Assembly: GCA_963753285.1 (NCBI GenBank)
Contig: CAVWBT010000011.1
Location: 69,354-133,353 of the forward strand
Length of the DNA stretch: 64,000 bases
Source: an uncultured bacterium
Lineage (GTDB): Bacteria > Actinomycetota > Acidimicrobiia > Spongiisociales > ZC4RG35
Reading direction: 5' to 3'
Made by a program: the position numbers and the translations under genes. Under the pieces are notes generated by a model. That model was given only the letters and a program-made list of their open reading frames with translations, did not search any database and was not told the origin of the DNA. Positions 2,726-62,469 of the stretch are shown here, in pieces; the first letter of the stretch is position 1, and every line of letters begins with the position of its first letter.

Positions 2726-3739
2726 ATGACCACGAAGACCGAACCCGACTGTGCGAGGTTCGAGCAGCTGCTCTCCGACAAGGGCCTATTGGTCGCCGAC
2801 GGTGCCATGGGAACCACGCTGTTCGAGATGGGACTCGAGAGCGGTGGTTGCCCCGAGCTCCTCAACGTCGAACGACCCGATCTGGTGCGGCGTGTTCACC
2901 AGGCCTTCGTCGACGCCGGCGCCGACATCATTCTCACCAACACGTTCGGTGGGAACCGGCGCCGTCTCGCTCTGCATCGGCTCGAGGGCCGTGTCGCCGA
3001 GCTCAACGCGGCCGCGGTGGGAATCGCAGCGTCCGTTCGGGATGCCGCGGACCGGCCGGTTCTCGTCGCCGGGAGCATCGGCCCGACCGGGGACCTGTTC
3101 GTTCCGCTGGGGCCGCTCACCCACGAGCAGGGCGTCGAGGTGTTCGCCGAGCAGGCGAAGGCGCTGGTCGACGCCGGTGTCGACGTCCTGTGGATCGAGA
3201 CGCTGTCCTCGTGGGAAGAGCTCGGCGCCGCCATCGAAGGATGCTCCGGTCTGGGGATCCCCGTCTCGGCCACGCTGAGCTTCGATACGAACGGCAAGAC
3301 GATGATGGGACTCTCGCCTCGTGAGTTCGGCGAATGGTGGACGAGACAGGACGATCCTCCGACCGCCATCGGGGCGAACTGCGGCATCGGGCCGGGCGAC
3401 GCAGTGGCGGCGGCGTTCGACATCACGTCGGTCGCAAACGACATCCCGGTCATCACGAAGGCGAACTGCGGCGTGCCGCTCTACAAGACCGACGCACCCG
3501 AGTACCCGGTCGGACCCGAGGGCATGTCCGACTACGTCGAGCTGGCCGTGCGGAGCGGTGCGAGGATCATCGGCTCGTGCTGCGGGTCGACACCGGCCCA
3601 CGTGGCCGCCATTCGTGCGGCGGTCGACGCCGGGATCACAGGAGAGAGGCCGGAGCGAGCCGAGATAGAGGAGCGCCTCGAAGCGGCACCGGATGCACCT
3701 CCAAAGGCCCGACGCGCCCGGTCAGGGCGTCGGGGCTGA
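2726..3739 (+). CDS. homocysteine S-methyltransferase family protein (Pfam S-methyl_trans; MmuM/BHMT-like)
   Basis: The translation matches the homocysteine-binding domain, including the GxNCGxGP and C-terminal SCCG zinc-binding cysteine motifs. ATG at 2726 with a GGAGG RBS 9 nt upstream. Confidence 0.85.
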   Translation: MTTKTEPDCARFEQLLSDKGLLVADGAMGTTLFEMGLESGGCPELLNVERPDLVRRVHQAFVDAGADIILTNTFGGNRRRLALHRLEGRVAELNAAAVGIAASVRDAADRPVLVAGSIGPTGDLFVPLGPLTHEQGVEVFAEQAKALVDAGVDVLWIETLSSWEELGAAIEGCSGLGIPVSATLSFDTNGKTMMGLSPREFGEWWTRQDDPPTAIGANCGIGPGDAVAAAFDITSVANDIPVITKANCGVPLYKTDAPEYPVGPEGMSDYVELAVRSGARIIGSCCGSTPAHVAAIRAAVDAGITGERPERAEIEERLEAAPDAPPKARRARSGRRG

Positions 3740-4744: not shown

Positions 4745-5041
4745 TCATCCGCCCGCCATAGCCCCAACGATCAGGTATGGCTCGGTGCCCGCTGCGACTG
4801 GTTCCGGGAGAGGATCATCGGGGTGTTCGTTCGACAGATCCTCCTCGCAGGCGAAGAACCGCACGAACGGGCGGCGGCCACCCGTGGTTCGCTCGCGAAT
4901 CGTTCCGATCAGCACGGGGTGTGCCGTCTCCAGTGCGTCGAGCACCTTCCGCTGGGTCACGGTGCCGTCGACCTGGAGCTCGAGTTCCGGTCCGACACCG
5001 GCCAGCGTGCGGAGGTGATGTGGCAGCCGGATCCTGATCAC
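4745..5041 (-). CDS. MoaD/ThiS-family ubiquitin-like sulfur-carrier-type protein (C-terminal Gly-Gly)
   Basis: 98 aa ending ...VGAMAGG. Its start overlaps the stop of the upstream BNR gene (ATGA). Confidence 0.65.
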
Positions 5042-6153
5042 GAGAGCGTCTGCACCTCGACCGAGTACACGGCTGGGAGGTCACGCACGATCGCCTCCCA
5101 GGTGTCGCCACCGTCCGGCGATGCATAGACCTGCCCACCGGTCGTACCGAAGTAGATGCCGCACGGGTCGTGGCCGTCGACCGCCATCGAGTCGCGCAAC
5201 ACGTTGACGTAGCAGTCCTCCTGTGGAAGGCCGTCGGTGAGGGCCTCCCATTCGTTCCCGCCTGATCGGCTCCGGTAGACACGCAGGCGACCCTCGGGTG
5301 GGTAGTGCTCGGAATCGCTCTTGATCGGAATGACGAACACGGTCTCGGGGTCGTTCGAGTCGATCGCCACCGGGAACCCGAAGTCGGATGGCAGATTGCC
5401 GCTCACCTCGTGCCAGTTGTCTCCGCCGTCGTCCGAGCGCATCACGTCCCAGTGTTTCTGCATGAACAGCACGTCGGGCCTGTCGGGGTGCATGGCGATC
5501 CGATGCACGCAGTGGCCCACCTCCGCGTCCGGATCGGGGAGCTCCGGGTTGGAGACCAGGCCACGGTTGATCGCGTTCCACGTCTCCCCGCCGTCCTCGG
5601 ACCGGAACGCCCCGGCGGCCGAGATGGCCGTGAACATCCGTCCGGGGTCGTTCGGGTCGAGGATGATCGTGTGCAGGCACAACCCGCCGGCACCGGGCTG
5701 CCAGGTGTTGCCGGTGCCGTGACCACGCATACCGGTCAGCTCCCGCCAGTTCTCGCCTCCGTCGGTCGACTTGAACAGCGCGGCGTCCTCGACTCCGGCG
5801 AACAGGGTGTCTGGATCGTTCGGTGAGGGCTCGAGGTGCCACACCTTGTGGAACTCCCATGGGCGAGGCGTGCCGTCGTACCAGAGGTGGGTGCCGGGAT
5901 CGCCTGCGTAGCTGAAGTCGTTGCCGACCGGTTCCCAGGTGGCGCCGCCGTCGTCGGAACGCTGGATCAGCTGACCGAACCAGCCGGTCCACTGGGCGGC
6001 ATAGAGCCGGTTGGGGTCTACGGGCGAACCGGTGATGTGGTGGACCTCCCATCCGGGGAAGTGGGGTCCCGCCACAGACCAGGTCATGCGGTCCTTCGAC
6101 GTGAGAACGAACGCACCTTTCTTGGTGCCGACCAGCACCCTGACACCGACCAT
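5038..6153 (-). CDS. BNR/Asp-box repeat protein (sialidase/Ycf48-like beta-propeller fold)
   Basis: Repeated S-x-D-x-G-x-T-W Asp-box motifs ([40 protein letters not shown]). ATG at 6153 with an AAAGGA RBS. Confidence 0.7.
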
Positions 6154-7262: not shown

Positions 7263-8630
7263 TCAGCCCGCACTCAGCGTGACCGGGTATTCACGGACGC
7301 CGATCTGCGCGCCGTCCTTGGCGGACGTGTCGAAGGTGATCACGGCTCCACGCTGGGTCGAGTCGAGCGGATACGGGATCGTCACGTCGAACGACGTCCA
7401 CGGGATTCCGCCGGGGCTGATCACCTGGGGGCCGTTCGCCAGCACCGGAACTTCGGCGATGATGAGCCCGTCTGCATCGACGACGACCACCTGGAACTGC
7501 GCTTCGAAGGCGAACGTTCGACCGACCAACCGCACCGGGTTGGCTGCAGTGCCTCCGAAGAGAGGTTGGTCCACGAAGACCATCGGCAGCACTCCGGCGT
7601 CGAGGAAGGCCTCCCGGGTGAACGGAGCCTCGATCCCGCCGACCTCGATCAATGGGATCGAGTCGGCGACGACTTCGACCCGGTCGACAGTTGGGAACTG
7701 GGTCAGCGTGAACACGACCTGAGCGACACTCCGCACTGTTGCCGGGCCGAATCCGGTCAGGCGGACGGTCGCCGTGTCTCCGCTGATCACGATGGACGAC
7801 ACCCTGGCGCTCGAGGGGATCGCAGTCGACATCGCGGGGATCGATGCCGACTCGCCTGGCGTGGGGCCTGCCAGCAGCTGCGTCATCGCGTCGGTTGCGG
7901 GCGTGAGCGACCAGGGCACGTCCCGGGCCACCGGGGCGAGGTAGGGGCCCGGGCCCAGCGGCTCGTCGCCGAGCGAGTCGAGATACAGATACGCCGCGAC
8001 GGTTCGCGTCCGCGGAAGGGGGATGATCGGCGTGAGACCGAGGGCTCGGACGAGCATCGACGCCATCTCGGCTCGGCTGATCGGGGTGTCCGGTCTGAAG
8101 GTGCCGTCGGTGTAGCCGAGGGAGATGGCGTTTTCGGCGATGGTGTCGATGTTGGGTTCGTGGACGTTGCCGTCGTCGTCTGCGAACCAGTCGCGGGTTG
8201 CGGGTTCGAGCTCGGGGAGGGCCCTGGCGAGGAAGCTCGCCATCTCGGCCCGCGTGACAGTCACCTCCGGTCTGAAGGTGCCGTCGGTGTAGCCGAGGGT
8301 GATGGCGTTTTCGGCGATGGTGTCGATGTTGGGTTCGTGGACGTTGCCGTCGTCGTCTGCGAACCAGTCGCGGGTTGCGGGTTCGAGCTCGGGCAGCGCC
8401 CTGGCGAGGAAGCTCGCCATCTGGCCCCTCGTGACCGGGTCATCCGGGCAGTACCGATCTGTGTCGCAGCCCTGCGTGATCCCGGTGGCGACGAGGGCCT
8501 CGATCGCCGGCTCGTGGGCGCTTCCGTCGTCGTCGATGAACGTGCCTCCAGGTGGAAGTTCCTGGGCCGCCGCCGGGATGAACGGAATGGCCAGTGCAAC
8601 GGCGAGGGCGATCGTCGCGAGTCGTTTCAT
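7263..8630 (-). CDS. secreted cell-surface protein: three SLH-like repeats, then a GerMN domain and a C-terminal Gmad2 Ig-like domain
   Basis: Signal peptide MKRLATIALAVALAIPFIPAAAQE. The ATG at 8630 has a strong GGGAGGAGG RBS. The repeats carry the SLH signature (DGxF.P....TRA.MASFLARAL). Confidence 0.8.
   Translation of the reverse strand: MKRLATIALAVALAIPFIPAAAQELPPGGTFIDDDGSAHEPAIEALVATGITQGCDTDRYCPDDPVTRGQMASFLARALPELEPATRDWFADDDGNVHEPNIDTIAENAITLGYTDGTFRPEVTVTRAEMASFLARALPELEPATRDWFADDDGNVHEPNIDTIAENAISLGYTDGTFRPDTPISRAEMASMLVRALGLTPIIPLPRTRTVAAYLYLDSLGDEPLGPGPYLAPVARDVPWSLTPATDAMTQLLAGPTPGESASIPAMSTAIPSSARVSSIVISGDTATVRLTGFGPATVRSVAQVVFTLTQFPTVDRVEVVADSIPLIEVGGIEAPFTREAFLDAGVLPMVFVDQPLFGGTAANPVRLVGRTFAFEAQFQVVVVDADGLIIAEVPVLANGPQVISPGGIPWTSFDVTIPYPLDSTQRGAVITFDTSAKDGAQIGVREYPVTLSAG
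8092..8445. repeat. intragenic tandem duplication (2 x 177 bp, about 97% identical) encoding two SLH repeats
   Basis: Near-identical 177-bp units begin at 8092 and 8269. Each encodes LPELEPATRDWFADDDGNVHEPNIDTIAENAI(T/S)LGYTDGTFRP... Confidence 0.85.
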
Positions 8631-10717: not shown

Positions 10718-12475
10718 TTAACCGTCGGTACGGGCAAGGGTCGCCGATTCCCAGCCGCGCACGGCGTTCAGTCTGGCGAGTTGCGGCGCGGCCCGGAGCT
10801 CGTCGACGGTCACCGATCGTTCGATCAGATCACCCGTCGCGAGCATGGCCGCGCGTCGGACGCCTGCGAGCAGGCCGTCACGGACCGGGGGAGTGACCCA
10901 CATCCCGTCGATCAGGACCGCCAGATTGCCGATCGTGGTCTCGGTGACACGCCCTGCCTCGTTGACCAGCACCACGTCGTCGGCTTCGGGGACCCGTCGT
11001 GCGGCCTGCTCGTAGACCGAGCGGCTGGTCGTCTTGTGGAAGAGCAGCGGATCGTGGGAGTCGATCCTGTCGGTGTCGATCGCCAGCATCAGGGGCCGTT
11101 CTGACGGCGCAGGCAGTGGTTCGGTCTCGACGGTGATCCACCCGATGCGATCGACGAGCAGCCTCACCTTCATCGCCTGCTCTGCGCCCCGGGTGGCCCG
11201 GTCGAGGCCGACTCGCACCTCGGCCGGGTCGAGCGGCACGTCGAAGTACCACGCCGAGTCGGACAGTCGCGAGAGATGCCTCGCGAGCTCGTAGAAGCCG
11301 CTCTCGGGGTCCCAGCGCATGGTTTCGATCAACTGGAGATCGGCGGATCGGCGTTCCAGCACCTGGGTCTTGAGCAGCGCTTCGGCGTACTCGTCTCCGG
11401 GCGTCGAGTCATACGTGATTCCACCGCCTGTTCCGTACATCGCCAGCTTCTGTTCGCGATCGATCAGCACCGTTCGGATGGCGACGTTGAACGCCCATTC
11501 GGGGCCGGCCGCCCCGGGCCCTCCGAACCCGACGGTGCCGCAGTACACACCGCGAGGCGTGGTCTCGAGGCGGGAGATGATCTCCATCGTCGAGACCTTC
11601 GGGGCGCCGGTGATCGACGCACACGGGAAGAGCGCTCCGAAGACGTCGACCAGCCCCACGTTCGGCAGCGGTCGCCCCTGGACCGTCGACGTCATCTGCC
11701 AGACCGTGTCGTATTTCTCGGTCGAGAACAGCTCGGGGACCTCGACCGAGCCGATCCGGCTGATACGCCCCAGGTCGTTGCGGACCATGTCGACGATCAT
11801 CAGGTTCTCGGCCCGGTTCTTCTCCGAGCCGAAGAGACGCTGTCGCCGCTCCTCGTCGTCGGCCAGGGTCGTTCCCCGATCGGTCGTGCCCTTCATCGGC
11901 CTGGAGACGATGCGATCGTGGCGCCACTCGAAGAAGAGCTCAGGCGATGCAGACGCGACCGCCCATCTCCCGGCATCGATGAAGCTCCCATATCCGCACG
12001 TCTGCGACGAGGCGAGGTCGGCATAGAGCGCCAGCGCATCGCCGTCGAACGGCGCGTCGAGTCGAAAGGTGTGGTTGACCTGATAGGTGTGCCCCTGCCG
12101 GATCTGTCGGCGGATCTCGGAGATGGCGGCGTGGTGGCGGGCTTCGTCGGTGGACGGAGTCCATGGTCCCAGGTCGAAGCTGCCAACGTGCGGAGTCGTT
12201 GCGACCCGGCGGTCGAACACGGCGAACCAGGCGAGCGGGAGATCTTCGACGTTCGTGCCGGATACGTCCCGTACCACTAGCGACCGGTCGAAGGCGGGGG
12301 CAGCCTCGTAGCTGACGAATCCCGCCACCCACTTGTGTCGTGCGACGGCGCGCTCGACCGCTTCGAGGACGCCGACGACCTCGTCGATGTGGGTGGTCGA
12401 GAGGATCTCGATCGGCTCGTCGAGTTGGAACGATCGACGGCGGTGCGGCCTGAGGTCGTCGAAGCGGGCGAACAA
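10718..12475 (-). CDS. pabB: aminodeoxychorismate synthase component I fused to aminodeoxychorismate lyase (PabB-PabC)
   Basis: The N-terminal chorismate-binding domain carries the PIKGT-like/anthranilate synthase motifs (SRPMKGTTDRG, GAPK). The C-terminal roughly 150 aa is a class IV aminotransferase/ADC lyase-like region. Confidence 0.8.
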   Translation of the reverse strand: MFARFDDLRPHRRRSFQLDEPIEILSTTHIDEVVGVLEAVERAVARHKWVAGFVSYEAAPAFDRSLVVRDVSGTNVEDLPLAWFAVFDRRVATTPHVGSFDLGPWTPSTDEARHHAAISEIRRQIRQGHTYQVNHTFRLDAPFDGDALALYADLASSQTCGYGSFIDAGRWAVASASPELFFEWRHDRIVSRPMKGTTDRGTTLADDEERRQRLFGSEKNRAENLMIVDMVRNDLGRISRIGSVEVPELFSTEKYDTVWQMTSTVQGRPLPNVGLVDVFGALFPCASITGAPKVSTMEIISRLETTPRGVYCGTVGFGGPGAAGPEWAFNVAIRTVLIDREQKLAMYGTGGGITYDSTPGDEYAEALLKTQVLERRSADLQLIETMRWDPESGFYELARHLSRLSDSAWYFDVPLDPAEVRVGLDRATRGAEQAMKVRLLVDRIGWITVETEPLPAPSERPLMLAIDTDRIDSHDPLLFHKTTSRSVYEQAARRVPEADDVVLVNEAGRVTETTIGNLAVLIDGMWVTPPVRDGLLAGVRRAAMLATGDLIERSVTVDELRAAPQLARLNAVRGWESATLARTDG

Positions 12476-15605: not shown

Positions 15606-16556
15606 TCACCGAGTGTCGGCGCGGGCGGCGCGCAACACCTCGTCGATCGGTGACGTGGCGAGGTCGCCGAGTTCCTGGACGTAGTCGTAGCCGAACCGGC
15701 CCTTGATGCACAGGTTGCCGTGGGTGACGGAATGGTCGAGCGGTGAGGTGACCTTGACGATCCGGTTGTCCTGGACGTGGAGTTCGAGGTTGCAGCCGAT
15801 GGCGCAGTACGAGCACACGGTGCGGGTCACCGTCTGCTCGTCTTCGCGCCAGATGCCCGCCCGGCGCATCTCGTATTCGGAACGGAACTGCAGCGCACCC
15901 GTCGGGCACACGCCGACGCAGTTGCCGCAGAAGACGCAGGCCGAGTCGGTGAGGGGAGTGTCGAGCTCGGTCGAGATCCTGGCGTCGAAGCCGCGTCCGG
16001 CGACTGCAATGGCAAAGGTGTTCTGAGCCTCCTCACCGCACGCCTGGACGCACTTGTAGCAGAGGATGCAGCTGGCGTAGTCCCGGATGTACAGGGCGTT
16101 GTCCACCTTGACGGGCTGGTCGACGCTCTCGGCGGTCGTGCCGTCGGGCTCTGGGTGGTGGCCGGCGTGACGGTGATCCCTGTCGTCGTGCGGACCGGAC
16201 GGTGGCCCGTAGCGAGACGAGTCGACGCCGTAACGCTCCATCCAAGGAGCCATCTCGCTGTTCGAGAGGTCGGCGGAGGAGTCGAGGAACTCCAGGACCA
16301 TCTTGCGGGAGTGGCGGACCCGTTCGGAGTCGGTGTCGATGACCATCCCGTCTTCGACCTTGCGCGAGCATGACGGGACGAGCGTCCGGGATCCTTCGAC
16401 CTCCACCACACACACCCGACAGGCATTGACCGGCGTGAGCGTCGACACCCAACACAGGGTCGGCTGCTCGCTCCCGATCTCCCGACACGCGTCGAGGATG
16501 GTCGACCCTTCGGCCACGTCGACCCGGGTGCCATCGATGGTCACCGAGACGGTCAT
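15606..16556 (-). CDS. NuoG/HylA-like iron-sulfur subunit: 2Fe-2S ferredoxin, 4Fe-4S clusters and a C-terminal molybdopterin-oxidoreductase Fe4S4 domain. This is the detached N-terminal module of formate dehydrogenase alpha.
   Basis: Cys clusters CxxC...C and CILCYKCVQAC, CVFCGNCVGVCP, CSYCAIGCNL. It ends just after the Fe4S4 domain. ATG at 16556. Confidence 0.8.
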   Translation of the reverse strand: MTVSVTIDGTRVDVAEGSTILDACREIGSEQPTLCWVSTLTPVNACRVCVVEVEGSRTLVPSCSRKVEDGMVIDTDSERVRHSRKMVLEFLDSSADLSNSEMAPWMERYGVDSSRYGPPSGPHDDRDHRHAGHHPEPDGTTAESVDQPVKVDNALYIRDYASCILCYKCVQACGEEAQNTFAIAVAGRGFDARISTELDTPLTDSACVFCGNCVGVCPTGALQFRSEYEMRRAGIWREDEQTVTRTVCSYCAIGCNLELHVQDNRIVKVTSPLDHSVTHGNLCIKGRFGYDYVQELGDLATSPIDEVLRAARADTR

Positions 16557-16563
16557 GCTCGGT

Positions 16564-16598
16564 CCACGTTCCACGTTGCACGTTTCACGTTCCACGTC
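16564..16598. repeat. heptanucleotide tandem repeat, 5 x (N)CACGTT (coding-strand sense GGACGTG/GAACGTG/AAACGTG/CAACGTG/GAACGTG), 8-42 nt upstream of the hylA-like start codon
   Basis: Read directly from ggtCCACGTTcCACGTTgCACGTTtCACGTTcCACGTcc. Confidence 0.8.
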
Positions 16599-16933
16599 CT
16601 CTCGGCAGCTGCGTCGATGGAACCTGCAGCAGGTAGGCGTCTCCGGCTTCGGTGCGTGTGGCCCGGCTCCTGTGCCCGGGAGACCCGGCCGGAGAACGGG
16701 ACTGGTTGGGCCCAACTGTGCGAGGGCGCGCCGGTAGGTGATGTCGGGTGTCGGGGTGGTGCGTTGCGGGCGAGGCAAGCCTCGCCCCTACACCTCGTCG
16801 TCCGCCGTACCGACGACCGACGACCGACGATCGGCAACTTGCGTCGCAGGGGCCGTCCAGGGGTAGGGGCGGCCGCCTGCGGCACCCGCAGCCCGGGCCG
16901 TCCGACCCACCGAACCCGGTCCATCGTCAAGCT

Positions 16934-16964
16934 TCTGTCACGCATCTGTCATCTGTCATCTGTC
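16934..16964. repeat. heptanucleotide tandem repeat TCTGTCA x4 (one interrupted), overlapping the stop codon of the NuoEF-like gene
   Basis: Read directly: tctgtcacgcatctgtcatctgtcatctgtc. Confidence 0.75.
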
Positions 16965-18707
16965 GAGAAGCCCCAGCCTGATCGCCGACTGGATGGCGGT
17001 GGCGGCGGTGTGGCCGAGGCCACAGATCGAGGCGTCCTTCATCGCCCGGTCGATGTCGTCGATCAGGTCGGCTTCGAGCGGTGATCCGCCAGTCAGATTG
17101 CGGGCCAGTGCCTCTTCGAGTCGAACAGTGCCGACCCGGCAGGGGACGCATTGGCCACACGACTCGTCGCGGAAGAAGCGGGCAATCCGCCGGGCGACGG
17201 CCTTCATGTCGGCCGAACTGTCGTAGACGACCACCACGCCGGAGCCCAGGCTGACCCCGGCGGCGCGGCTGTCTTCGAACGTGAGCGGCAGATCCAGCAT
17301 GTCGGGACCAACGAAGCTGCCCGCTGCTCCGCCCAGCAGGATGGCGGTGAGGTCGTCGGGCGGTCCGCCGGCGAAGTCGAGCAGTTCTCGGAGCGTCGTC
17401 CCGAAGTCGACCTCGTACACCCCGGGCCGATCGATCGCTCCGCTGAGACAGAACAGCCTGGTCCCCGTCGAGTCCGGTGTGCCGGTCTCGGCGAATGCCT
17501 CTCCGCCGAGCAGCACGATGTCGAGCACGTTGACCAGGGTTTCGACGTTGTTGACGACGGTGGGTTTGCCGAACAAGCCTGCCTCGGTGGGGAACGGCGG
17601 CTTCTGGCGTGGCTCGCCGCGGAAGCCTTCGATCGAGTTGAAGAGGGCGGTCTCCTCGCCGCAGATGTAGGCGCCCTGCCCCTGGCGGATCTCGATGTCG
17701 AACCGGATGCCCTCGCCGAGGATGTCGTCGCCGAGGAGCCGGGCCTCGATCGCCTGGTCGATGGCGTTCTGGAGCGCGTCGGCGGCATCGGGATACTCGC
17801 CGCGGACGTACAGGTAGCCCTGTTCGGCGCCGATGGCGAAGCCGGCGATCGTCATCGCTTCGATGACCGAGAACGGGTCACCCTCCAAGATCGTGCGGTC
17901 CTTGAAAGTGCCCGGTTCGGATTCGTCGGCGTTGCAGATGAGATATCGGGTCTCCGAGTCCGAGTCGGCTGCGCCCTGCCACTTCACACCGGTCGGGAAG
18001 GCGGCTCCGCCCCGCCCCCGCAGACCCGATGTCTTGACCTCGTCGATGACCAGATCCGGACCGATCTCGAGAGCCCGCTCGAGAGCGGCGTAGCCGCCGT
18101 GGTCGCGATACGAGTCGAGGCGTGCGGGATCGACGGTGCCGATCCGGTCGAGGATGTCGATCGATCGCCTCGGTTTCGCGGGTGAACGTCGTGGCGGTTC
18201 GTCGCCTGCCAGGGCTGCCTCGATCGCCTCGGCCGTGGCCGGAGCGATCACGACATCTGGCCGGCCCGCTCGCTGGACGAACGCCCCCGACCCGTAGTCG
18301 CATTGACCGAGGCAGGGACTCGAAGCCACATCGTCGCGTTCTCCCAGCTGGGCCAAGACGGCCTCGCCGCCGCTCGCGCGGCAGGCCGAGTCGTCACAAA
18401 CGTGTGCCATCCGCTGCGGCCGTGGGTCGACAGACAGCAGCGCATAGAAGGTGGCAACCGAGTAGACCTCGGCAGGTGGCACCGCCAGCCGGCGGCTGAT
18501 CTCGTCGATGGCACCTGGGGAGATCCATCCGATCTCGCCCTGGACTGCCGCGAGGGCGGGGAGGAGCAGGTGGCGGAGCGCGCGCGCCCGGTGACCACCG
18601 GCGACTGCCCGACCCGAGCTGATCTCGATTTCGGCCTCGGGCACGGCCGTGCGGACGGCGCGTTGCTCCGCTTCGGTGGCATCCGCGCCGATCAGCCTGA
18701 GATCCAC
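16956..18707 (-). CDS. NuoE-NuoF fusion protein (NAD(H)-binding flavoprotein with an N-terminal thioredoxin-like 2Fe-2S domain; FdsB/HylB-HylC-like)
   Basis: NuoE Cys motifs (CDDSACRASG...CLGQCDYG), then the NuoF FMN/NADH site (GLRGRGGAAFPTG, ICNADESEPGTFKDR) and 4Fe-4S site (ESCGQCVPCR). Confidence 0.85.
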   Translation of the reverse strand: MDLRLIGADATEAEQRAVRTAVPEAEIEISSGRAVAGGHRARALRHLLLPALAAVQGEIGWISPGAIDEISRRLAVPPAEVYSVATFYALLSVDPRPQRMAHVCDDSACRASGGEAVLAQLGERDDVASSPCLGQCDYGSGAFVQRAGRPDVVIAPATAEAIEAALAGDEPPRRSPAKPRRSIDILDRIGTVDPARLDSYRDHGGYAALERALEIGPDLVIDEVKTSGLRGRGGAAFPTGVKWQGAADSDSETRYLICNADESEPGTFKDRTILEGDPFSVIEAMTIAGFAIGAEQGYLYVRGEYPDAADALQNAIDQAIEARLLGDDILGEGIRFDIEIRQGQGAYICGEETALFNSIEGFRGEPRQKPPFPTEAGLFGKPTVVNNVETLVNVLDIVLLGGEAFAETGTPDSTGTRLFCLSGAIDRPGVYEVDFGTTLRELLDFAGGPPDDLTAILLGGAAGSFVGPDMLDLPLTFEDSRAAGVSLGSGVVVVYDSSADMKAVARRIARFFRDESCGQCVPCRVGTVRLEEALARNLTGGSPLEADLIDDIDRAMKDASICGLGHTAATAIQSAIRLGLLDR

Positions 18708-18974
18708 TCAGCACCACCCCCGGACGAGATCTTCGGGGTATTCAGTGTTTGTCCCCCCTTCGGGGGGACGGACCGCCCGCTGTCCTAGCCAGGGGGACGG
18801 CGAACCCGCGAGTATGGACTGAGTGATCGGGCGGTCAGGGGGGCATTCAACCTGGGTGACGGTGAGACGCAACGCCCCCTCGGCTTGCTGGCGCAAGCCT
18901 GTTCCCCCGGAGGGGGAACAGACAATCCGCCGCTTGCATGGGGTCGGGGTGAGCGAAGGCATTCCGGTCATGGG
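18708..18974 (-). other. structured intergenic region with several perfect GC hairpins (candidate sRNA/terminator/REP cluster)
   Basis: Hairpins GTCCCCCC-TTCG-GGGGGAC (18761-18779), GCTTGC-TGGC-GCAAGC (18884-18899) and CTGTTCCCCC-GGA-GGGGGAACAG (18899-18921). No ORF is present. Confidence 0.25.
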
Positions 18975-20881
18975 TCAGATCTTCTCCACTCGGATGGCGG
19001 TCGCTTTGAAGTCGGCGGTTCCCGACTTCTGGTCCCAGGCATCGATGGTCAGGACGTTCACGTCGACGTCGTCGGGGAAGTGGATCGGCATGAACATGAG
19101 GCCCGGGCGGAGCGCGTCGCTGATCAGCACGGGGACTTCGATCGAACCGCGGCGCGATGTGACCCGCACCGTGTCTCCGTCGGCGATCTCGAGTTCGTCG
19201 GCGTCGCGCCGGCAGAGCTCGAGGGCGCCACCCGGGCGGCGTGGCGAGGAGTAGCCGCCGGATTGGACCCCGGTGTTGTACGAGTCGAGGTGGCGCCCGG
19301 TCGTGAGCCGGTATGGATAATCGGGTGCGAGTGCATCGGCGGGCAGGACGTGCTCGACCGGGGTGAACTGGGCGGACCGGCCGACGTCATCGGTCCAGAG
19401 CCTCGAGTGGAGGAACTGCTCGCCCGGGATGGGACTCGTCGTAGCACGGCCACTGGATCCCGCCGAGCTGCTCGAGGCGGTCGTAGCGCATTCCCGCATG
19501 AGGCGGGGACAGGCTTCTGCACTCGTCCCAGATCTCTTCGGGTCGTGGCATGCCCCAGTCGAATCCGAGCCGCTGGGCCATCAGGTGGAGGATGTCGGTG
19601 TCGGTCTTGGCCTCACCGGGCGGTTCGAGTGCTTTGCGGACGAGTTGCACGCGACGCTCCGAGGACGTGACCGTCCCATCGGACTCGCACCAGTCGGCGG
19701 CGGCCGGGAAGACGACGTCGGCCAGCTCGGCGGTCTTGGTGAGGAACATGTCCTGGACGACCAGGAATTCGAGTTCTCTCGAGCGCCCGCCGGGTCACGG
19801 CGACATCCGCCTCGGATTGGGCCGGGTTCTCGCCGATGACGTACAGCGCCCGTAGCTTGCCCGCTTCCATGGCCTCGAACATCTGAGTGAGATGCCATCC
19901 GCGCTTGGGGTTCAGCTCGGCGCCGTAGGCGGCCTCGAACTTGGCGAGATGTTCGGGGTTCTCGAGGTCCTGGAAACCCGGGAGCTTGTTCGGGAGTGCG
20001 CCCATGTCGCCGCCACCCTGGACGTTGTTCTGGCCGCGGATCGGAACGAGCCCGGATCCGTAGCGACCGACGTGACCGGTCAGCAGTGCGAGGTTGATCA
20101 ATGCGAGGACGTTGTCGGTTCCGTTGTGGTGTTCGGTGATGCCGAGTGTCCAGCAGATCTGCGCCGTCGGGGCTTTGGCGTAGTTGATCGCCATCTCTTC
20201 GATCAACTCAGCCGGTACGCCGGTCTCTCGGCTGGTGCGTTCGAGGGTCCATTCCTCGACGCTCGCCGCGTAGGACTCGAAGTCGCTGGTGGCCCGCTCG
20301 ATGAACTCGGTGTTGGCGAGTCCCTGTTCGATGATGACCCGAGCCATGCCGTTTGCGAGGGCGATGTCGGTCCCGACGTCGATGCCGAGCCAGACGTCGG
20401 CCCACTGGGCGGTCTCAGAGCGGCGCGGGTCGACGCAGTACATCCGGGCGCCGTTGTGGATGCCCTTCAGTACGTGGTGGAAGAAGATCGGATGGGCGGC
20501 GCGGGCGTTCGAGCCCCACATGATGATGAGATCGGTGTTCTCGATCTCCTCATAGGAGCTGGTTCCACCGCCTGCGCCGAGGACGGCCACCAGACCGGCG
20601 ACCGAAGGAGCGTGTCAAGTGCGGTTGCAGCTGTCGATGTTGTTGCTGCCCATGGTGACCCGAATGAACTTCTGTGCCAGATAGTTCAACTCGTTGGTCG
20701 CCTTCGAGCAGCTGAACATGCCGACGGCCGTGCCGCCGTGCGTGTCGCGCACCTCCGACAGGCCTGCGGCTGCCCGGTCGAGGGCTTCATCCCATGATGC
20801 GGCCCGTAGAACCCCGTCTTCGCGAACGAGTGGCGTGGTCAGTCGAGTCCGTGGTCGGCGTGAACGTGTCGTCGTCATCAT
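18975..20881 (-). pseudogene. fdhA: formate dehydrogenase catalytic (molybdopterin) subunit, selenocysteine-containing. The reading frame is interrupted by two single-base indels near 19774-19780 and 19432-19437, so this is either a pseudogene or assembly error.
   Basis: Four ORF fragments (20615..20929, 19613..20590, 19387..19749, 18975..19499) together span a complete FdhF-like protein. Fragments 1 and 2 are in the same frame across the TGA at 20615-20617, where the NNIDSCNRT-U-HAPSVAGL motif matches the FDH-H ARVUHGPSVAGL selenocysteine site. ALE(K)LEFLVVQD and DESHPG/EQFLHSRLW continue in shifted frames. The start is the ATG at 20881 (MMTTTRSRR...) with a GGAGAGGAGG RBS. Confidence 0.75.
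20584..20604 (-). promoter_or_regulatory. bacterial SECIS-like hairpin 10 nt downstream of the in-frame UGA (CGGUCGCC-GGUCU-GGUGGCCG)
   Basis: 8-bp stem with G-U wobbles and an apical GGUC(U) loop. Its position and shape are analogous to the E. coli fdhF SECIS. Confidence 0.55.
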
Positions 20882-21064
20882 CTCACCTCCTCTCCGGCCA
20901 TTGGCTCTTGGCTGTCGGCTCTTGGCCATTGTGGTACATCGGTGAGCCGTCGGGGGGCGACCGCCGGGATTCCCACATGGTGGAACTGAGGGCCTGGCTT
21001 GCCTGGCGGCTCGCCTTGGCCCGTCGTCGGTAGTCAGTTCTCGGTCATCGGTCTAGCGAGCGGG

Positions 21065-59777: not shown

Positions 59778-59974
59778 GGAACCAGCTTGCGGCCGGCCCG
59801 CTCTTTGAGTGCGGGCGCCAAAGAACGCCATTCACGGGCCGCCGGAGATAGCGACCGGTCACTGGCGAGCTGTATGTCTGGGCGGACCGCTGCATTGGCC
59901 GACCTCATGGAAGGGAGTCGGCTCGCGCCTCGTGTGGCCAGGAGCCAAGAGCCAGCGGCCAACAGCCAATCCCG

Positions 59975-61624
59975 TCAGAGGGCTTCTGCGGTGAGCTCGT
60001 TCTCGTGGGAGGCCAATTGCGAGGCCAGTTCCTCATCAGTCCATCCGAGCTCCCGCTGCATGATCGACGCGATCTCGGGGGCGTCGATCCGGGCGTGATC
60101 CCTGGTGAACCAGGCGAGGTGGGTCCGTCGGAGCGTGATGTCGCTGATGCGGCTGGCTGCCTCGTAACGAACCGCATAGGCCACGTCGGCGCGTGACGTT
60201 CGCCCATCTCCCAGAGGTTTGGCGAGATCGGGATCCTCGTCCATCAGGTTCGCCAGCGTCATGACCTCGGTCCCGTACCGGGTGATGCTCGGTGCGATCA
60301 CCGAATCCGTGGCGCCGGCCTCCCGCAATCGCCGTTCGAGCGCCGGCACCGATCCGTTGGCGCCGACGAGGGTGACCTCATCGGTCGAGGACTTCACCTC
60401 GAGATCGAGATGGCCGGCCACGACGTCAGCTGCCTCGGCAGCGATCTTCCGATACGTGGTCAGCTTTCCGCCTGCGACCTGCACCAGTCCGGGGACGGGC
60501 TCACCGACGACATGGCCTCGTGACGCCTTGGCGGTCGATTCGCCGGCCGGGTCGGCGAGCGCACGCAGGCCGGCGAAACTCGAGATCGGCTCGAAGTCCG
60601 GCACGTCCAGATAGCGGCGCACGTGGCGGATGAGGTAGGCGGTGTCATCGTCGGAGGCCGTCGGGTGGGTCGGGTCCTCGGTGTATTCGGTGTCGGTGGT
60701 GCCGATCATCGAGTGGCCGAGCCACGGGACGATGAACAGGACGCGCCCGTCGTCAGTGGTCGGGAGCACGAGCGCCCTCCCGCCCAGTGGGAGGTCGTCC
60801 TTGGCGACCATCAGGTGGGTGCCCTTGCTCGCCACGAGCTTCATCGGCTTGGCCGGCCCGTCGATTCCGGGGAGCTGGAAGGCGCCCGTTGCGGCGATCA
60901 CCGTCGTCGCTTCGATCGTGAAGGCGTCACCGGTTGCGATGTCTTCGACGTCGATCGAGAACCGCCCGTCGTGGGGGTGGACCATCACGACCTTGATGCC
61001 GCTGGCGGCGGTTGCGCCGTAGCGGCGGACCGCCGTCTTGAGCAAGGTGACGACGAGGCGGGCGTCGTCGGTCTGTGCGTCGGAGTACACGACGCCGCTC
61101 TTCAATCCCTCGGTCCGCAGATCGGGCATCATCCCGATCAACGTCTCGACATCGACACCGCGGTGACGGTCGCCGGGGCGACCGAAGCCACCGAGAACGT
61201 CGTAGAGGGTCAACCCGGCACGGAGGGCGATCGGGGCGATCCAGCCCTTCGACGCCCACTTCGGTGCGTCGGCGAGCCCGTACTGCTCGTAGATCGGGAT
61301 CACGAACTCGAGCGGGTCGTACAGGAAGTCGGCGATGTGATTGAGGATCTTCTGTTCGCGCAGGCCCTCGGACACGAGGTGGAACTCGAAGTGGGGCAGA
61401 TATCGAATGCCACCATGGAACAGCTTCGTAGAGCGCGAAGAGGTCCCCTGGGCGAAATCGGACTGTTCGACGAGCCCGACGTCAACACCTCGAACCGACA
61501 GATCGAGGGCTGCTCCTGCGCCGATGATCCCGCCTCCGATGATCAGCGTGTCGAAGCGCCCGTGAGACTTCAGGCGTTGGACGTGGTCGGCCCGATTCCA
61601 GGCTGTGGTGACTGTCGTTGCCAT
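59975..61624 (-). CDS. glpD: glycerol-3-phosphate dehydrogenase (FAD-dependent)
   Basis: FAD Rossmann motif DTLIIGGGIIGAGAALDL. Full-length GlpD-like. ATG at 61624. Confidence 0.9.
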   Translation of the reverse strand: MATTVTTAWNRADHVQRLKSHGRFDTLIIGGGIIGAGAALDLSVRGVDVGLVEQSDFAQGTSSRSTKLFHGGIRYLPHFEFHLVSEGLREQKILNHIADFLYDPLEFVIPIYEQYGLADAPKWASKGWIAPIALRAGLTLYDVLGGFGRPGDRHRGVDVETLIGMMPDLRTEGLKSGVVYSDAQTDDARLVVTLLKTAVRRYGATAASGIKVVMVHPHDGRFSIDVEDIATGDAFTIEATTVIAATGAFQLPGIDGPAKPMKLVASKGTHLMVAKDDLPLGGRALVLPTTDDGRVLFIVPWLGHSMIGTTDTEYTEDPTHPTASDDDTAYLIRHVRRYLDVPDFEPISSFAGLRALADPAGESTAKASRGHVVGEPVPGLVQVAGGKLTTYRKIAAEAADVVAGHLDLEVKSSTDEVTLVGANGSVPALERRLREAGATDSVIAPSITRYGTEVMTLANLMDEDPDLAKPLGDGRTSRADVAYAVRYEAASRISDITLRRTHLAWFTRDHARIDAPEIASIMQRELGWTDEELASQLASHENELTAEAL

Positions 61625-61646: not shown

Positions 61647-61784
61647 GCACCCACCCAAAGCCCGGGTGCGTGTGGCGGGCGGTGTCGGGTGGGCACCCAC
61701 CCAAAGCCCGGGTGCGTGGGGCGGGCGGTGTCGGGTGGGCACCCACCCAAAGCCCGGGTGCGTGTGGCGGGCGGTGTCGGGTGG
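61647..61784. repeat. tandem repeat, 3 x 46 bp (GCACCCACCCAAAGCCCGGGTGCGTGTGGCGGGCGGTGTCGGGTGG), upstream of glpD
   Basis: Units are at 61647, 61693 and 61739. The copies differ by one nucleotide. Each unit has internal inverted symmetry (GCCCG...CGGGC). Confidence 0.85.
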
Positions 61785-61793
61785 GCACCCCAC

Positions 61794-61821
61794 ACGTCAC
61801 GTCTCACGTCTCACGTCTCAC
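61794..61821. repeat. heptanucleotide tandem repeat ACGTCAC + 3 x GTCTCAC (coding-strand sense GAGACGTG repeats), about 170 nt upstream of the glpD start
   Basis: Read directly: acgtcacgtctcacgtctcacgtctcacc. Confidence 0.8.
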
Positions 61822-61941
61822 CTGGAACCTGGACCGTAACGCCATGACCGCTGCCCTTGGGCGGTCGTCAACGTATGCTCTCAGCCAGTCAGACCGGAGC
61901 GGTGGAACATCTCGATACCCGACATCCTCGCCATCACCAGG

Positions 61942-62469
61942 GTGGTCCTGGTCCCCGCGATCATGGTGCTGGCGCGCTCGGAGGACCGGATGGACGCTGC
62001 GCTCGGCTGGGCTGCGGCGCTCTTCACGGTGGCCGCGATCACGGACTTTCTCGACGGGTATCTGGCTCGGCGCTGGCAGATCGAGTCGACTCTCGGCGCC
62101 TTTCTCGACACGACGGCCGACAAGCTGTTGGTGACCGGCTCGCTGATGGCACTCATTTCGATCGATCGTGTGTCGATCTGGGCTGCGCTGATCATCGTGA
62201 TGAGGGAGTTCATCGTCATGGCCCTGCGTGGTCTGGTGGCCCTGACCGGCGGCCTCGTCAAGCCTTCTCAGCTCGGGAAGGCCAAGGCCCTGATCCAGTT
62301 CGTCGCCATCGGGTTTGCGTTCATCCGGTTCTCGAGCCCTGTCGGTCCGCTGTTCTTCGATGAGTGGCTGATGCTCCTCGCGGTCGTCGTCACGCTCGCC
62401 AGCGGGTGGGGATACGTGCAGGCGTTCTGGGAGACGGTTCGTTCGGAGAGCGCCGGCGCTCCGGCATGA
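61942..62469 (+). CDS. pgsA: CDP-diacylglycerol--glycerol-3-phosphate 3-phosphatidyltransferase (5' boundary unresolved)
   Basis: CDP-alcohol phosphatidyltransferase motif DFLDGYLAR...AFLDTTADK. The conserved N-terminal helix (NISIPDILAITRVVLVP) is encoded in-frame at 61906-61950, upstream of the first possible start (GTG at 61942), with an in-frame stop at 61837. Confidence 0.7.
   Translation: MVLVPAIMVLARSEDRMDAALGWAAALFTVAAITDFLDGYLARRWQIESTLGAFLDTTADKLLVTGSLMALISIDRVSIWAALIIVMREFIVMALRGLVALTGGLVKPSQLGKAKALIQFVAIGFAFIRFSSPVGPLFFDEWLMLLAVVVTLASGWGYVQAFWETVRSESAGAPA

Follow-up and report, generated by a model that had tools for sequence, protein, structure and literature searches.

The 64,000-nucleotide stretch analysed here (the window) derives from an uncultured bacterium of the Acidimicrobiia (GTDB lineage Bacteria; Actinomycetota; Acidimicrobiia; Spongiisociales; ZC4RG35; GenBank assembly GCA_963753285.1, contig CAVWBT010000011.1, positions 69,354 to 133,353 of the forward strand) and contains at least six tandem arrays of 7-base units (heptads). 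All six lie between reading frames and none is located inside a coding frame. These arrays are probably microsatellites with a 7-bp unit, made and remodelled by replication slippage in non-coding, lineage-specific spacers. They are best explained as genuine, statistically strong repeats that constitute neither the operator array of a regulator nor a contingency locus. At a given gene junction, sister species differ in copy number, in unit sequence and even in whether an array is present. Three of the arrays (A, C and D) had been reported in a preliminary description of the window, and all three were recovered at their described positions; three more (B, E and F) were distinguished in this study.

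Heptad arrays of the window

The following arrays were identified, together with the spacer that holds three of them:

Array A, 16563..16597, minus strand: five ACGTGNN units, 6 nt upstream of the hylA-like ATG (16556..16554)
Array B, 16809..16830, minus strand: perfect 3.1 copies of CGTCGGT (ACCGACG on the plus strand), in the middle of the NuoEF-hylA spacer
Array C, 16933..16964, minus strand: three perfect GACAGAT units (16944-16964), then GCGT, then GACAGAA (16933-16939)
Array D, 61793..61832, plus strand: CACGT cores at 61793, 61798, 61805 and 61812, in the spacer between the divergent pgsA-like and glpD genes
Array E, 20897..20931, minus strand: five imperfect heptads, CAATGGC CAAGAGC CGACAGC CAAGAGC CAATGGC (GCCAATG/GCCAAGA type)
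Array F, 59937..59971, plus strand: five GCCA+NNN units (GGA, AGA, GCG, ACA, ATC), between the convergent sigma-factor and glpD genes
NuoEF-hylA spacer, 16557..16955, minus strand: 399 nt, containing a GC-rich hairpin in addition to arrays A, B and C

On the minus (coding) strand, array A reads ACGTGGA ACGTGAA ACGTGCA ACGTGGA ACGTGGA and is followed by CCGAGC and the hylA-like ATG. Tandem Repeats Finder (TRF) describes it as period 7, 5.0 copies and 89% match, and its variation is limited to a single column. The five units and the 8 nt between the end of the last ACGTG core and the ATG agree with the preliminary description. In array C, the NuoEF stop codon TGA (16958..16956) straddles the first two units; this overlap had been recognized, while the four tandem TCTGTCA copies proposed there are three tandem copies and one displaced by GCGT. 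The site upstream of glpD, described as four heptads, does carry an array (D), the perfect stretch of which is 3.6 copies of TCACGTC at 61797-61821. It is preceded by one CACGT spaced by 5 nt, is continued by two in-phase units with one mismatch (CACCTGG and AACCTGG), and lies approximately 170-200 nt upstream of the glpD ATG (61624, minus strand). The Shine-Dalgarno sequence GGAGAGGAGGTGA of a selenocysteine-type fdhA gene, with its ATG at 20881, directly adjoins array E (TRF: 20901-20926, period 7, 3.7 copies), the unit of which is the reverse complement of one unit of array F; array F stops 3 nt short of the glpD stop codon (59975-59977). The window by itself contains at least five different units. 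The ACGTG core, which had been ascribed to all three sites first reported, is present in arrays A and D and in none of the other four, array C being composed of GACAGAT.

The excess concerns period 7 only. Among perfect tandem repeats of at least 3 copies with periods of 4-15, no other period was represented (3 arrays observed vs. 0.005 expected from 200 second-order Markov shuffles of the window). With permissive TRF thresholds (score of at least 30, at least 2.8 copies), six period-7 arrays were observed against 0.63 expected in shuffles, and every other period, 6, 8 and 9-12 among them, was near its expectation. The window and sister loci together (121 kb) contain 16 period-7 arrays, compared with 5 at period 6 and 3 at period 9. 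The preliminary description had proposed a search of the genome for other NACGTG heptad arrays; heptad repeats in general are strongly enriched both in the remainder of the window and in the sister genomes. The word ACGTG behaves differently: ACGTGNNACGTG has 6 matches (0.36 expected), every one within arrays A and D, whereas ACGTG outside the arrays is not enriched in the window (162 observed vs. 155 +/- 14), and in the 64 kb no ACGTG pairs spaced by 7, 14 or 21 nt were found except inside arrays A and D.

Neither RNA nor DNA folds of the six window arrays were significant (z between -1.2 and +1.8), and the RNA fold of the hylA leader (z +1.08) was no better than those of shuffles. An Rfam scan of the whole window at gathering thresholds gave no match, and consensus scans of both spacers for sigma-70 promoters and intrinsic terminators found nothing. 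A 130-aa frame running across the NuoEF-hylA spacer, in which array A would encode TWNVKRA TWNVDRA, was rejected as coding sequence: no frame is conserved in relatives, and the GC content by codon position is flat (0.67/0.70/0.71, vs. 0.62/0.48/0.88 in hylA). Because this codon-position bias is lacking, the long frame is regarded as spurious.

Gene junctions in sister species

The arrays were compared with loci of relatives (designated L with a number), the sister species sharing about 80-90% nucleotide identity with the window in coding sequence. Distant Acidimicrobiia (L003-L012) have no comparable NuoEF-hylA spacer; their genes either overlap, as in L004 (ATGA), or lie at most a few tens of bases apart. 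In the lineage of the window, the junction is a spacer of roughly 130-450 nt with two or three heptad arrays, differing by species:

Window: GACAGAT x 3, CGTCGGT x 3, ACGTGNN x 5
L081: GACAG(AT/AC/CT) x 6 over the stop codon
L082: AGTTCAC x 4.7, ACTGTCG x 4.4
L001: AGTTCAC x 4.9 and a degenerate version of the second array
L002: GCTGTCG x 4.3, and GACGTGG x 4.4 just before the ribosome-binding site

The GACGTGG array of L002 occupies the position of array A and has the same 3' flank, GGACCG(G)AGC. Array A is absent from L174, L001, L081 and L082. The closest relative found is L174 (HylA 96.5% amino acid identity; hylA 89.8% and spacer core 82.5% nucleotide identity), in which array C consists of eight perfect GACAGAT units and GACAGAA, compared with three perfect units in the window. 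The NuoEF protein end (...LLDR*) is identical with 3 or 8 copies, because array C expands downstream of the stop codon. Array B is degenerate in L174 (about 2.3 copies), and its position in L175-L177 carries TCGGTCN/TCAGTCN x 4. The last ~100 nt before the hylA ATG of L174 are of another sequence, related to L082 and L001. Copy number, the comparison of which had been recommended, is thus not constant among relatives (3 vs. 8 for array C; 5 vs. 0 for array A), and this behaviour fits the slipped-strand repeats suggested in the preliminary description. The NuoEF end GACAGATGA joined to the hylA start ATGACC rebuilds an ATGA stop/start overlap such as that of L004, and on the strength of this reconstruction array C looks like a duplication of the junction itself.

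In metagenome and genome scans, full-length HylA matches came from other species only (at most 94% identity), and no second strain of the window species was found, nor any conspecific sequence apart from its own contig. One sister species is represented by nine to ten independent samples, which show no difference over the stretches compared. That species has no array at the pgsA-glpD spacer, so these samples are uninformative on polymorphism; only L175-L177, which are identical to one another, reach the degenerate array of the NuoEF-hylA junction.

The pgsA-glpD spacer is equally variable. L163 carries ACCTGAG ACCTGAG ACGTGA, and L162 has about nine in-phase ACGTNNN-type units (two of them ACCT, the last ACGC) in two inverted arms. 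These inverted arrays of L162 fold into a strong hairpin (z -5.0), and are the only arrays tested that fold strongly. No heptads are present at this spacer in L161 and in L165-L173; in the species of L165-L173 only 63 nt separate the pgsA-like and glpD start codons. At the other end of glpD, array F is wholly absent from L164, the GlpD of which is 95.8% identical.

Heptads also follow hylA homologues elsewhere. In L058, an Acidobacteria metagenome-assembled genome (MAG), 23 GAAGTNN heptads (4895-5055) stand directly after the hylA homologue, and 15 reverse-complement GAAGTNN heptads (5180-5285) are located about 125 nt beyond the first set. In L066 ('Versatilivorator' MAG, 4926-4995), about 10 GGAGAGT units follow the hylA homologue. 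Acidimicrobiia are therefore not the only group with heptads at this operon junction.

Small hairpins were observed in the same intergenic regions. The GC-rich hairpin of the NuoEF-hylA spacer (16768-16788; GGGCGAGGC AAG CCTCGCCC) occurs twice in L174, which implies that small hairpin units, too, were duplicated within this spacer. Hairpins with C5/G5 stems are located in the fdhA-nuoEF spacer (window 18752-18768 and 18903-18917). A double-hairpin element of roughly 70 nt (GTCCCCCACGCAGYGGGGGAA...CCTGCCGNCCGAGGAACGAGGNCGGGAGG) was found at two unrelated loci in relatives, in the following places:

L175, about 2940-3000: double-hairpin element
L165, about 11715-11785: double-hairpin element, 3' of glpD
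L081: double-hairpin element upstream of hylA

Six independent short-read contigs start at exactly one same base inside this element, which suggests that it is a dispersed repeat that breaks assemblies.

Origin of the arrays and alternative explanations

If the arrays are slippage microsatellites, a short local sequence would have been duplicated once, after which strand slippage would expand or contract the copies. The seed of array C may have been the ancestral ATGA stop/start junction, GACAGATGAC. Arrays would later decay by point mutation or be replaced by indels, and, together with small hairpin elements, they would have inflated overlapping or very short junctions into spacers of roughly 130-450 nt. 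The effect on expression would probably be limited to the uncoupling of translation of neighbouring genes and a change in spacer length, and we infer no dedicated sequence-specific function.

The window arrays are a new instance of a known but unexplained class, the bacterial intergenic heptameric simple sequence repeats (SSRs), the tested features of which they share. In the intergenic DNA of many bacteria, heptameric units are over-represented among SSRs (Mrazek, Guo and Shah, 2007, as cited in Rehm et al., 2015, PMC4692102). The preliminary description had regarded slipped-strand contingency repeats as unusual for a high-GC actinobacterium; Mrazek et al. (2007) are cited in PMC4692102 as reporting that longer-unit repeats, heptameric ones included, are commoner in large, high-GC, non-pathogen genomes. 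The Xanthomonas GGGAATC and Nostoc GGGGA(C/T)T units fill intergenic DNA, where relatives have them between the same genes but in differing length and sequence; they have a conserved core, variable positions and sometimes inverted pairs (PMC4692102). The window arrays resemble the class in their head-to-tail 7-bp units (typically about 3-5 copies), the excess of period 7 alone, the strong non-coding bias, and a location that is kept while length and sequence vary (array C with 3, 8 or 6 copies; array A present or absent). They also share the conserved core with variable positions, the occasional inverted array pairs and the high-GC, non-pathogen genome. Unlike the Xanthomonas and Nostoc heptamers, the window units are not G-rich and cannot form G-quadruplexes, and several unit families coexist, none of them dominant in this small sample. 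Several distinct families amplified in intergenic DNA are likewise characteristic of the cyanobacterial short tandemly repeated repetitive (STRR) heptanucleotides, which belong to a different phylum, have different units and generally reach higher copy numbers. Heptanucleotide repeats of Calothrix PCC 7601 are among those cited in PMC4692102. We found no published report of heptameric SSRs in Acidimicrobiia.

Several other systems show partial similarity. TAACTGA direct repeats are found in marine Beggiatoaceae, some Cyanobacteria and some Bacteroidetes; in Beggiatoaceae many of them stand a few nt upstream of start codons, where a translational role has been proposed, not tested, with a cold-shock or S1-type protein as the suggested reader (MacGregor, 2015, PMC4679880). 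Like these tandem heptamers (2-6 copies), arrays A and E lie within a few nt upstream of start codons. However, TAACTGA is a single heptamer in one orientation, present at 169 sites and often replacing the ribosome-binding site, whereas the window arrays are built of several units, differ in orientation and occur at stop codons and in mid-spacer as well, and a normal Shine-Dalgarno sequence follows array E. MetJ operators of Gammaproteobacteria, built of tandem 8-bp met-boxes (AGACGTCT; PMC4239095), are also contiguous short boxes with an ACGT centre, and array D can be read as AGACGTG AGACGTG AGACGTG. The MetJ boxes have period 8 and are conserved across regulon and species, while the window boxes have period 7 and are absent in close relatives. 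The motif ACGTGNNACGTG, unique to arrays A and D, is missing at the corresponding sites in L174, L001, L081, L082, L161 and L165, so that no conservation of the MetJ kind is seen. SARP-type operators of Streptomyces provide an actinobacterial precedent for protein binding to heptameric direct repeats; there, a spacer of 4 bp (rarely 3 bp) stands between heptamers, and the resulting period of 11 bp or 10 bp keeps them on one helix face (PMC5930380), whereas the window units are contiguous with a 7-bp period. In attenuation arrays of the HutP/TRAP type, a repeated short core adjoins a terminator or anti-terminator hairpin of the leader; the hylA leader shows no significant fold (z +1.08), no terminator-like site and no Rfam family.

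Four features of the arrays weigh against the slippage explanation. The unit repertoire is non-random, identical heptamer classes (rotation and strand allowed) being shared by non-orthologous loci:

AACGTGG: array A and L162
ACAGATG: array C/L081 and L165
ACCGACG: array B and L019 (x 2.1, unrelated locus)
AAGAGCC: arrays E and F

These four exact classes, in about 0.14 Mb of lineage DNA, compare with roughly 0.4 expected, a rough estimate derived from P = 0.002 per random pair. Moreover, a GACAGAT array and an (A/G)CGTGGA array stand together in a spacer of the window and again in a spacer at an unrelated locus of L165. The variable positions of imperfect arrays fall in 2-3 adjacent columns beside a constant core of 4-5 nt; in array F all 7 mismatches lie within 3 adjacent columns (P about 0.016). 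This clustering is significant in L058 (the clearest case), L162 and array F, and not in other arrays, with P values that are generous and suggestive only, because the counts are not independent and are inflated by amplified variant units. By our own tally, which is reasoning rather than a formal test, arrays abut start and stop codons more often than uniform placement in spacers would give; a possible neutral cause is that the spacers grew out of former gene junctions. Finally, simple slippage gives no reason for period 7 alone. The only published idea on this point, as relayed in PMC4692102, is that slippage of this unit size is favoured by the length of DNA that the active site of the polymerase accommodates (Mrazek et al., 2007). 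Recurrent units, column clustering and start/stop placement keep a functional or mechanistically specific reading alive, with a small share of the probability. A dedicated process with a 7-nt step, either a core-reading protein at gene junctions or a polymerase- or repair-linked creation and spread of heptamers, is rather unlikely to have produced the arrays; in either form it would explain the recurrent units, the variation of 2-3 nt linkers and the same architecture in unrelated phyla (e.g., L058).

A related proposal, that the arrays are functional binding platforms, we consider unlikely, if only a little less so. Here an oligomerizing protein advancing in 7-nt steps would read a 4-5 nt core (ACGTG, GACAG or GCCA) on the DNA or the mRNA leader and tune transcription or translation of the adjacent genes. 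The constant core with a variable linker, the identical units at unrelated loci and the position of the arrays speak for it: array A ends 6 nt before the ATG, array E abuts the Shine-Dalgarno sequence, L002 has an ACGTG array in the same place, and ACGTG/ACCTG heptads occur in the pgsA-glpD spacer of three species that share about 80% coding-sequence identity. Such a reader would be akin to MetJ on DNA, and on RNA to HutP, which acts on UAG-N4 repeats, or to a cold-shock or S1-type protein. The MetJ boxes (PMC4239095) and the TAACTGA repeats near start codons (PMC4679880) may serve as precedents by analogy. Several cores, however, would require several readers, and the orientation relative to the genes is inconsistent: the sense strand reads GACAG in the window and in L081 but CTGTC in L002 and in L082, and L162 has units in both orientations. 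Single arrays are also missing from relatives: A from L174 and three other sister species, D from L161 and L165, and F from L164. No regulator gene was detected among the neighbouring genes scanned. The narrower suggestion of the preliminary description, an array bound by an ACGTG-recognizing regulator, meets the further difficulty that the core is confined to two of the six arrays, with neither enrichment nor phased pairs of ACGTG in the rest of the 64 kb; it keeps some weight because the heptamer repertoire is non-random. Still less probable is the import of ready-made arrays by mobile or recombining cassettes, that is, miniature dispersed elements or exchanged leaders, which would explain both the recurrent units and the patchy pattern. 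The last ~100 nt before hylA do exist in three versions that do not follow coding-sequence relationships (window and L002; L174, L082 and L001; L081 and L175-184). The third version is the double-hairpin element, found also 3' of glpD in L165 and at the break of the six short-read contigs, and the joint occurrence of GACAGAT and (A/G)CGTGGA in one spacer at two unrelated loci points the same way. Around arrays of the same unit, however, no conserved flanks, terminal inverted repeats or target duplications were seen by eye; local duplication of the junction would explain array C, and the change of copy number in place (3 vs. 8) requires slippage in any case.

The preliminary description had also raised the possibility of contingency repeats, in which a reversible change of copy number would switch or grade hylA, fdhA, nuoEF or glpD within a population. 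The repeats do lie near translation signals and their copy number differs between relatives, yet such phase-variable loci are very improbable here. No array is in frame except at the NuoEF stop, where the additional copies of array C follow the stop codon and the protein end is the same with 3 or 8 of them; the leader arrays are upstream of the Shine-Dalgarno sequence and ATG, the spacing of which is therefore unchanged. No promoter hexamers flank the arrays, in contrast to contingency SSR loci, and the flanking genes belong to central metabolism. The 9-10 samples of the sister species are identical, although only L175-L177 of these cover an array, a degenerate one. That the arrays are artefacts of assembly or sequencing is next to impossible. 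Compared with intact orthologues, the window fdhA carries two +1 frameshifts, so single-base errors may be present in the assembly, but such errors cannot make 22-35 nt of 7-nt periodicity, and assemblies made independently in different projects, with different assemblers, also have heptads at these junctions (L001, L002, L081, L082, L162, L163 and L174).

With slippage microsatellites as the preferred reading, the lineage provides a compact comparative case, in which birth, expansion (3 to 8 copies), decay and replacement of arrays can be followed among sister species at one operon junction. The same junction is a practical system to set heptamer-specific slippage against heptamer-reading proteins, the heptamer excess in bacterial intergenic DNA having been on record since 2007 and never explained. 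Should the arrays be neutral, interest in the finding would be modest. For annotation and assembly, it is relevant that the arrays create long spurious frames and that contigs of relatives break at repeat-rich spacers, as shown for the dispersed hairpin element.

Neighbouring genes and other repeats

The genes flanking the arrays belong to central metabolism and encode formate dehydrogenase subunits and glycerol-3-phosphate dehydrogenase, with a formate-tetrahydrofolate ligase next door. A Pfam scan of six neighbouring genes revealed no DNA-binding family of transcription factors; it identified an ECF-type sigma factor beside glpD and two small open reading frames without a match. The formate dehydrogenase region (15606-20881, minus strand) has an unusual order: the molybdopterin catalytic part, a fused NuoE-NuoF, and a separate 316-aa protein. 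The last contains the 2Fe-2S, 4Fe-4S and Molybdop_Fe4S4 modules that usually make up the N-terminal part of the catalytic subunit. The fdhA gene (18975-20881, minus strand) has an in-frame TGA at 20617..20615, within SCNRT-U-HAPSVAGL, which likely encodes selenocysteine. Two +1 frame changes are located near 19776 and 19425, where L001 and L002 have an uninterrupted frame of 545 aa. Both insertions are at short base runs, which points either to a decaying gene or to consensus errors of the assembly.

The spacer between array D and the glpD start also contains a 46-bp tandem repeat in 3.1 copies (61647..61790, plus strand; 97% match, score 281), which is a triplication of conserved sequence just upstream of glpD. 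L161 has a single copy-like sequence and L164 one copy-like unit, the L164 contig ending 63 nt upstream of glpD, inside this unit. The unit holds the conserved GGGCTTTGGGTGGGTGC, which is closely followed by a TACGAT box located 6 nt from the glpD ATG. Judging from GGGCTTTGGGTGGGTGC and this box, glpD may be leaderless, with a triplicated upstream promoter region.

On the other side of array D, the N-terminal segment of the pgsA-like protein (...NISIPDILAITRVVLVP...; window 61838-61965, plus strand) is conserved, and the differences between the window and L165, checked by eye in NISIPDILAITR, are synonymous. No in-frame ATG, GTG or TTG precedes this segment, and the conserved ATG at 61875 is out of frame with it in the window, L163 and L165. 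The pgsA-like gene could therefore use a non-canonical start or a programmed frameshift. A further tandem repeat, of a 177-bp unit in about 2 copies (96% match), is located at 8089-8534, apparently inside a minus-strand reading frame.

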